64,000 nt of DNA from IMG/VR virus record IMGVR_UViG_3300021962_000032, one strand, 5' to 3'. The position numbers and the translations under genes are program-made. A model generated the notes under the pieces. It was not told the DNA's origin. It did not search any database and saw nothing but the letters and a program-made list of their open reading frames with translations. The DNA is from a virus. Shown one piece after another: positions 1,749 through 2,327 of this stretch (the first letter of the stretch is position 1; every line of letters starts with the position of its first letter).

Positions 1749-1756
1749 TATTTATA
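1749..1756 (-). promoter_or_regulatory. Late promoter TATAAATA overlapping the hsp20 stop
   Basis: CTA TAA ATA on the minus strand. Confidence 0.65.
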
Positions 1757-2189
1757 GGTAATCTTTTCGTTTATGAGATTCTGGGACAATTTTACCAAGA
1801 ACAACACTCAACAATCCATCCTCAAATTCAACTGATCTAACTTCTGTGTCATCTGCGAGAGTCCAAGATCTGGTGAAGGATCGTTGCGCCAATCCTTTGT
1901 GTACGTAGGTGGACTCCGTTTCCTTGTCTTCTTTTTGCCCTTCCACAAAGAGTTTTCCGTCTTGCGTGTAGACAAAAACTTCCTTTTTCTTAAATCCTGC
2001 GAGTGCGATTTCCAAACGTGATTCGACATTGCTTAACGTAACTAAGTTATATGGGGGATAATTTGAAGTTGTTTCGTGAAGATTCCAGAATCTATCAAAA
2101 AAGTAATCATCAAAACCAATACCATATCGATGAATCCTATCCATAAGGGTAGGAAGATCCGACGTAGTTAATCGTGCGAGATTAGTCAT
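1752..2189 (-). CDS. hsp20: Small heat-shock protein (Hsp20/IbpA-like)
   Basis: NYPPYN, EIALAGF, HKGLAQRSFTRSWTL, FEDGLLSV alpha-crystallin motifs. Start at 2189 with AGGAG 8 nt upstream. Confidence 0.95.
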   Translation of the reverse strand: MTNLARLTTSDLPTLMDRIHRYGIGFDDYFFDRFWNLHETTSNYPPYNLVTLSNVESRLEIALAGFKKKEVFVYTQDGKLFVEGQKEDKETESTYVHKGLAQRSFTRSWTLADDTEVRSVEFEDGLLSVVLGKIVPESHKRKDYL

Positions 2190-2280
2190 TATAGTAGCTC
2201 CTTTTAAAGCGAGTTTGTATTTTGTGGACCCCGAAGGCATCCTTTAGCGAATGGGGGGGTAGATCTACCTCTCACCCATC
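2190..2280 (-). promoter_or_regulatory. Structured hsp20 5' leader with ROSE-like SD-sequestering hairpin
   Basis: Hairpins GGUA-GAUC-UACC and GGAU(G)CC-UUCG-GGGUCC, then CUC(G)CU-UUAAA-AGGAG covering the SD. Confidence 0.6.
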
Positions 2281-2302
2281 ATTATTATATATCACAAAGC
2301 AT

Positions 2303-2327
2303 AAAAAAAGGGAGTGTGGAACTCCCT
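2303..2327 (-). terminator. Intrinsic terminator after regA
   Basis: AGGGAGT-TCCAC-ACTCCCT followed by a T-run. Confidence 0.85.

Follow-up and report, generated by a model that had tools for sequence, protein, structure and literature searches.

Classical ROSE elements of alpha-proteobacteria control class A small heat-shock protein (sHSP) genes, and an RNA thermometer that acts through alternative structures is known in a phage, in the cIII gene of lambda. Short two-hairpin ROSE-like thermometers were described upstream of the ibpA genes of Pseudomonas (Krajewski, Nagel, Narberhaus, 2013; PMC3669281). Hairpin I of these leaders is stable and unresponsive to temperature, and it was suggested to serve as protection from 5'-end-dependent decay (Krajewski et al.; PMC3669281). 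Hairpin II pairs the Shine-Dalgarno sequence (SD) imperfectly with U(U/C)GCU, leaves the AUG free and suffices by itself to raise expression 4- to 6-fold from 25 to 42°C (PMC3669281). Removal of the extra G abolished expression, the element being locked shut, and in P. putida a loop-proximal G-C clamp was needed for repression (PMC3669281). An RNA thermometer was also reported on a cyanobacterial sHSP gene, hsp17 of Synechocystis (PMC3669281). In the viruses of cyanobacteria, the marine cyanomyoviruses share 25 core genes, of which hsp20 is one (PMC3037559), and chaperone activity was shown in vitro for a cyanophage Hsp20 (PMC5028025).

The leader described here precedes hsp20 in a cyanophage; it has the ROSE layout, is conserved among phages and covaries in both of its helices. 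The DNA analyzed (the window, 64 kb) comes from an IMG/VR virus record of 91 kb, about 48% complete, and the source virus is, by gene content and nearest relatives, a T4-like cyanomyovirus, with the Synechococcus phages S-T4 and S-SKS1 as its closest named relatives. The hsp20 gene (145 aa; 1752..2189, minus strand; AUG at 2189-2187) was recognized by a PF00011 Hsp20 match with an E-value of 3.3e-14. In NCBIfam, its product matched IbpA (E 2e-25) and IbpB best, neither at a score that reaches the equivalog cut-off, and on these matches the phage protein is an IbpA-like sHSP, the class found under ROSE control. Immediately 3' of hsp20 is an ORF for an FkbM-type methyltransferase (PF05050; 1131-1721, minus); in S-T4 and S-SKS1 this position is taken by small hypothetical genes, followed by the DNA polymerase gene.

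The upstream neighbor of hsp20 is regA (PF01818 ORF; 2771-2334, minus), which ends in an intrinsic terminator (2309..2327, minus; AGGGAGTTCCACACTCCCT followed by a T run) with a 7-pair stem and a T tail that sets the hsp20 transcript apart from regA. Downstream of this terminator, a -10-like TATAAT box (2284..2289, minus) without a recognizable -35 is the probable hsp20 promoter, and may belong to the sigma-70-like class or be a variant form of the T4-late box TATAAATA; no full sigma-70 promoter was found on the hsp20 (minus) strand of this region. In the relatives, a TATAAT or NTAAATA box was located at most 22 nt upstream of hairpin I (of 210 distinct leaders, 106 have NTAAATA and 50 have TATAAT). 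The full-text literature searched yielded neither a transcription start nor an expression class for cyanophage hsp20.

Read 5' to 3' on the minus strand, the region is composed of TATAAT, a 35-nt insert, hairpin I, a linker, the anti-SD, the loop UUAAA, the SD, a spacer and the AUG. Hairpin I (2226..2242, minus; GGAU-G-CC / UUCG / GG-GUCC) has six pairs and an invariant bulged G at 2238; it is stable and presumably insensitive to temperature, and its probable role is that of a folding scaffold and/or 5' stabilizer. The linker (2214..2225, minus; ACAAAAUACAAA) is A/C-rich and, judging from its sequence and the comparison of 208 leaders, single-stranded. Among those 208 leaders the linker measured 6–13 nt and was composed of 56% A, 21% C, 19% U and 4% G; being A-rich and nearly free of G, it could act as a ribosome standby site beside a structured ribosome-binding site. 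Hairpin II (2198..2213, minus), the proposed sensor, consists of the anti-SD CUCGCU (2213-2208), the loop UUAAA (2207-2203) and the SD AGGAG (2202-2198), with the pairs C2213-G2198, U2212-A2199, C2211-G2200, C2209-G2201 and U2208-A2202 in the ROSE register and with G2210 bulged. The unpaired spacer CUACUAUA (2197-2190) and the AUG (2189-2187) follow (together 2187..2197, minus, from the sequence), so that the distance from AGGAG to the hsp20 AUG is 8 nt. The first-pass annotation of this DNA had placed a paired SD with a bulged G at 2198-2213, and these coordinates proved exact, on the minus (hsp20) strand. The motif CTCGCT-N3-8-AGGAG, searched on both strands of the 64 kb, gave this single match at the hsp20 ribosome-binding site, with 0.02 matches expected per window (dinucleotide shuffles, a match occurring in 2 of 100).

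The same annotation had also drawn two stable hairpins further upstream and a second UCGCU..AGGA copy. The hairpin with the cUUCGg loop turned out to be the conserved hairpin I (2242-2226), and the one with the GAUC loop is present but not conserved. The latter is contained in an insert of 35 nt specific to this phage, which parts the promoter box from hairpin I (2243..2277, minus) and in which GGG..CCC (2277-2253) encloses a perfect palindrome, GGTAGATCTACC (2269-2258), with GAUC in the loop. Read as RNA in the leader, the palindrome is GGUAGAUCUACC; it contains GATC and is flanked by GGG..CCCCCCC. The fold of the insert was predicted at -8.5 kcal/mol (z -0.78 against shuffles). The second copy exists as letters, UUCGCU-AAA-GGA, with its non-conserved UUCGCU (2251-2246) inside the insert, but it cannot adopt the drawn fold: AGGA as the 3' arm would leave a 2-base (AA) loop, and its GGA already forms the 5' side of hairpin I. 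The insert as a whole is absent from the relatives, including four (L001-L004) whose Hsp20 is 95–99% identical, and a 19-nt stretch of it gave no exact match in IMG/VR. By this comparison of sequences, the GAUC hairpin and the second UCGCU belong to an insert that is particular to this phage and lies outside the conserved element. Differing extra hairpins were observed in other lineages (S-PM2, S-CAM1, S-CAM9/S-PRM1, S-T4, L322), at the same site or between the core hairpins. When the leader and its parts were folded as single sequences, the z-scores ranged from -0.03 to -1.4, no better than shuffles; hence, the significance of the element derives from the comparison among phages and not from thermodynamics.

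Furthermore, the leader carries the features by which ROSE elements are recognized: it is the 5' leader of a gene of the IbpA/Hsp20 class, U(U/C)GCU can pair with its SD and leave a G bulged, and a stable hairpin lies on the 5' side. When it was compared with the Rfam models, the top match was ROSE_3 (RF02523), with 22.5 bits and an E-value of 0.047 (per-genome E 9e-4). The alignment was full length and on the correct strand, running through hairpin I, anti-SD and SD from AUG to AUG; no match in the window was obtained with ROSE_2 (RF01832) or ROSE (RF00435) at E ≤ 10. The comparison thus favored the proposed ROSE assignment in the identity and length of the best match, but not in its score, which stayed below the 43-bit gathering threshold of ROSE_3. 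This threshold was reached by none of the phage leaders tested (the best, that of Melnitz, scored 34.1 bits), which is why automatic annotation misses the phage elements. The validated E. coli ibpA leader scored 100 bits with ROSE_2 and only 20.8 bits with ROSE_3, and therefore a sub-threshold ROSE_3 score separates sub-families and is no argument against function.

The closest likeness was to the Pseudomonas ibpA/ROSE_3 leaders, which share the stable G+C-rich hairpin I, the single-stranded linker, the short hairpin II and the IbpA-type gene; the Rfam ROSE_3 consensus reads GGAUGCC...GGGUCC, with a bulged G as in the phage hairpin I. In contrast to Pseudomonas, hairpin II of the phage is shorter (5–6 pairs) and lacks a loop-adjacent G-C clamp, and the element is viral, resides in a cyanobacterial cell, follows a phage promoter box (TATAAT or NTAAATA) and is preceded here by an extra 5' hairpin. 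The ibpA leader of E. coli K-12 (ROSE_2) has the identical CUCGCU...AGGAG core with the bulged G, but is longer and possesses an extra G-C pair next to the loop. Classical ROSE (RF00435; Bradyrhizobium ROSE1) agrees in the U(U/C)GCU anti-SD, the bulged G, the 3'-proximal position of the hairpin and the stable 5' hairpins, and differs in its number of hairpins (three to four) and in the greater length of the sensor hairpin. Synechocystis hsp17 and lambda cIII, set apart by their descriptions, have other architectures without U(U/C)GCU and the bulged G.

The conservation of the element was analyzed in a close set of 80 IMG/VR loci, with Hsp20 77–99% identical, plus S-T4 and S-SKS1, which yielded 69 distinct leaders including that of the window. 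All followed a common order of terminator, promoter box, hairpin I, A/C-rich linker, CUCGCUU, variable loop, AGGAG, spacer and AUG. CTCGCTT and the GAG of the SD were invariant in the 69 leaders, and the loop differed in both length and sequence. The identical core was present in all of 20 more distant phages with Hsp20 30–74% identical, among them Prochlorococcus phages, P-SSM7, Syn9, S-PM2, the Methylophilales phage Melnitz and jumbo phages of Sinorhizobium, Agrobacterium and Pseudomonas. These distant leaders were aligned by covariance model, MAFFT having set the SD wrongly in about a dozen of them.

A covariance model built from 66 leaders (R1) found one match in the 64-kb window, with 73.6 bits (next best 6.3 bits), and one in the whole 91-kb record, at hsp20. 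It was then applied to 242 further loci, taken from around three divergent Hsp20 clades and from two metagenome-assembled genome (MAG) contigs and nearly all outside the training of R1 (one, L234, is Syn9 itself). In 236 of them it detected one element per locus, always on the strand of hsp20 and with its end at the AUG of that gene. The six misses comprised five loci cut at the contig end, three with a partial element, and one divergent but recognizable copy. A weak R1 match at 2687-2728 of L005 was rejected, as it lies inside a coding region. Over the 211 distinct leaders, N-U-(C/U)-G-C-(U/G) was found opposite the SD in every one; the bulged-G hairpin I with the motif Y-G-C-C occurred in 208, and the spacer between SD and AUG differed among relatives in sequence and length.

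Several variants of the layout were observed. In the S-H9-1 clade (L093, L103-L182) the SD, which is weakened, abuts the start codon with a spacer of 0–1 nt instead of 6–8, and the N-terminus of Hsp20 is shorter. Two IMG/VR leaders (L322 and L328, at about 470-555) have three hairpins, with an extra GCCGGU...ACGGC bearing a bulged G between hairpin I and the SD hairpin; the R1 match on this middle hairpin was discarded as a misalignment, the true SD hairpin being CUUGCU...AGGAG.

Outside recognized phage genomes, the two MAG contigs were the sole returns of a genome-contig scan. They were assigned to Acidibacter (L343) and Psychromonas (L344), encode Hsp20 proteins 70–78% identical to that of the cyanophage and carry the leader at 76.6 and 48.7 bits, respectively. 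Both are probably phage DNA binned into MAGs, and are therefore uninformative on a cellular origin. A scan of 150 Gammaproteobacteria genomes with R1 under strict filters retrieved one genuine cellular ibpA leader (L348; genome G144, C1:2824525-2824591). It is a two-hairpin leader with CUUGCU...AGGAG directly 5' of a typical IbpA, and it scored 29 bits with R1 and gave no match with Rfam ROSE_3. Two other matches (L349 and L350) were marginal and without Hsp20 downstream, and were not retained. In E. coli K-12, a weak R1 match (16.4 bits) fell in the ibpA-ibpB intergenic region, just upstream of ibpB (L355:2902-2974, minus), driven by a hairpin I-like GCUCGCC-GUCA-GGGAGC with a bulged G; a bulged-G first hairpin may, from these sequences, be common to ibp leaders. 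Since both gene and leader are present in phages of cyanobacteria, Methylophilales, Rhizobiales and Pseudomonas, hsp20 and its leader appear to move together as a module.

Evidence for selection on the pairing was obtained from covariation. In the 69 close sequences, the six core pairs of hairpin I form in every leader; three of these pairs have both partners substituted (G-C to A-U, A-U to U-A, C-G to U-A) and a fourth alternates between U-G, U-A and C-G. Pairing in this close set was 91.6%, versus about 33–52% when the partners were slid by one to three columns. In an independent set (A6), 7 of the 8 pairs of hairpin I change on both sides, and in the most diverse independent set 10 of 13 pairs do so, counts that come from independent-loci alignments fitted to R1. 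Of the cells in the independent set, 95.6% were paired, versus 51–63% (about 55%) when slid, and its covariation score of 0.399, versus 0.150 in shuffles, was reached by none of 500.

Hairpin II is not free to covary in the same way because one of its arms is the SD. In the ROSE register, all five of its pairs form in 206 of 211 distinct leaders, and the outer pair is C-G in 162, G-C in 45 and U-G in 4, with no mismatch. The G-C form characterizes the S-H9-1 clade, in which all 45 distinct leaders read GU(C/U)GCU...AGGAC, both strands having changed from the outer C-G. Likewise, an extended SD, AGGAGG, goes with an extended anti-SD, CUU(C/U)GCU. Most of the covariation in hairpin II traces to one or a few ancestral events.

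The stability of the SD helix was estimated in two registers. RNAfold, applied to the sequence of the window, prefers GCUUU/GGAGC (-3.6 kcal/mol at 37°C), a register in which the SD is likewise masked but no G is bulged. The predicted SD occupancy was flat against temperature because RNAfold chose this register, and both were then evaluated explicitly. The closing G-C of GCUUU/GGAGC requires a C after AGGAG, which occurs in 69 of the 211 leaders, and by sequence comparison the changes in hairpin II fit the ROSE register and not this one. The phage SD helix was predicted at -3.8 to -4.6 kcal/mol at 20°C and at -1.7 to -2.2 kcal/mol at 37°C. The bulged G is invariant in 211 of 211 distinct leaders, and its deletion in silico shifted the mean ΔG at 37°C from -1.3 to -5.1 kcal/mol, a gain of about 4 kcal/mol. 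On these calculated energies, selection appears to hold the SD helix at marginal stability. The core helix of E. coli ibpA was predicted at -4.6 kcal/mol at 37°C, the phage helix being about 2.5 kcal/mol weaker; by the nearest-neighbor estimate in the ROSE register, the latter would have at about 14–25°C the stability of the E. coli helix at 37–42°C, a range that would suit hosts living at about 10–30°C.

The reading that we favor, and hold to be reasonably probable, is that this ROSE-like leader is a cis-acting thermometer on hsp20 translation. The RNA would present, behind an extra non-conserved 5' hairpin in this phage, the stable bulged-G 5' hairpin (2242-2226), then an unstructured A/C-rich linker and then a weak SD hairpin of five to six pairs. 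At low temperature the SD would be sequestered and little Hsp20 made; upon warming, the marginal helix would open gradually, the 30S subunit would bind and Hsp20 synthesis would rise, with the AUG free throughout and with neither a protein sensor nor a heat-shock sigma factor needed. Since the NTAAATA box before about half of the leaders indicates phage-programmed transcription, the thermometer would act at translation only. We infer the 5' end of the transcript, the masking of the SD in vivo and the temperature response from this layout, and that the phage senses temperature through its leader follows by analogy with validated ROSE elements and from the nearest-neighbor energies. By the same analogy, the helix might, without the loop-proximal G-C clamp, be too weak to repress at all. 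Temperature changes in the open ocean are, moreover, slow and small, and it is not obvious what advantage a thermometer would confer there.

The serious rival is a constitutive translational throttle, in which the SD is masked to keep Hsp20 low or at a fixed ratio, perhaps with the linker as a standby site, and temperature is not a signal. We consider it possible but clearly less probable than the thermometer. Conservation and covariation show selection for pairing and not for thermosensing as such, the marine hosts live in a narrow temperature band, and the T4-late-like NTAAATA, which precedes about half of the leaders, suggests that expression is programmed and not driven by stress. Nevertheless, a throttle would need neither the bulged G nor the exact U(U/C)GCU, and the G is kept in 211 of 211 leaders despite its cost of about 4 kcal/mol; a throttle thus accounts for the pairing and leaves both the bulge and the thermometer-type word unexplained. 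The same core is a proven thermometer in E. coli and Pseudomonas ibpA, and a helix so weak must respond to temperature physically. An mRNA-stability device, with the 5' hairpin I blocking 5'-end-dependent decay and the SD pairing incidental, is improbable, although in most relatives the inferred transcript start is only a few nt from hairpin I, whose UUCG or GNRA loops are stable and whose covariation is the strongest, and although such a role was suggested for hairpin I in Pseudomonas (Krajewski et al.; PMC3669281). This explanation does not account for the invariant CUCGCUU, the G-C flip with AGGAC or the extended anti-SD with AGGAGG, and in the phage of the window the 35-nt insert parts hairpin I from the promoter box, so that it is not 5'-terminal. 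As a stabilizer, hairpin I plausibly complements the thermometer and does not replace it.

RegA of T4 binds translation initiation regions, and regA adjoins hsp20 upstream, here and in many relatives, which would suit a leader that served as the operator of this translational repressor. We regard such an operator as highly unlikely. The element is carried by the jumbo phages Phosso, Atu_ph07 and Paride, which have no PF01818 homologue genome-wide, the upstream neighbor is not regA in P-SSM7, Syn9, S-CAM8 and P-TIM40, and the spacer between SD and AUG, the expected RegA site, is variable in sequence and length. On these three grounds the operator was excluded for practical purposes. The probability was judged negligible for a chance resemblance, or for an N-terminal coding extension of hsp20 from the in-frame AUG in GGAUGCC (2240). 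A 162-aa ORF does run from 2240, and the single-sequence folding was not significant, as would be expected by chance. Against both stands covariation of the RNA type; chance is further opposed by the rarity of the motif in shuffled sequence (0.02 expected). The coding extension was excluded by length differences of loop, linker and spacer that are not multiples of three, and the homologues start with MTN....

Taken as a whole, the interpretation offered by the first-pass annotation was partly supported. Its proposal of a ROSE-like, SD-masking leader on a phage hsp20 gained support from the ROSE_3 top match, the conserved two-hairpin core and the covariation in both helices, and its supposition that no ROSE element had been characterized in a cyanophage agreed with the literature searched, in which none was found. 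No paper linking a phage or cyanophage hsp20 to a ROSE element or RNA thermometer was retrieved from the full-text literature; phages are absent from a recent survey of ROSE-like elements, the leader goes unmentioned in the biochemical work on a cyanophage sHSP (PMC5028025), and no description of how cyanophage hsp20 synthesis is controlled was found in the literature searched. The leader is of the short two-hairpin ROSE-like type, in a viral and cyanobacterial setting and with a minimal sensor helix that is, on predicted energies, probably cold-shifted.

We give about even credence to a broader reading, taken as a whole, in which phages carry their own minimal ROSE module with an ibpA-like gene and sea temperature directly sets the level of the viral chaperone. 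In this same reading, the module would have spread through phages of cyanobacteria and of several proteobacterial lineages, its sensor would melt, by calculation in the ROSE register, some 17–22°C colder than that of E. coli, and it would be fixed in hsp20, a core gene of ocean cyanomyoviruses, without recourse to a host heat-shock sigma factor. If the leader were only a fixed throttle, it would still represent a cis-regulatory RNA of very wide conservation that has so far escaped annotation, its scores lying below the Rfam thresholds. The minimal five-pair sensor is also a potential cold-shifted part for the engineering of RNA thermometers. Should the leader prove to work as a thermometer, it would be the first known viral sensor of the ROSE type and a proteobacterial-type RNA switch operating in the cyanobacterial cytoplasm, and it would provide a simple molecular link from sea temperature to the infection programme of very abundant ocean viruses.
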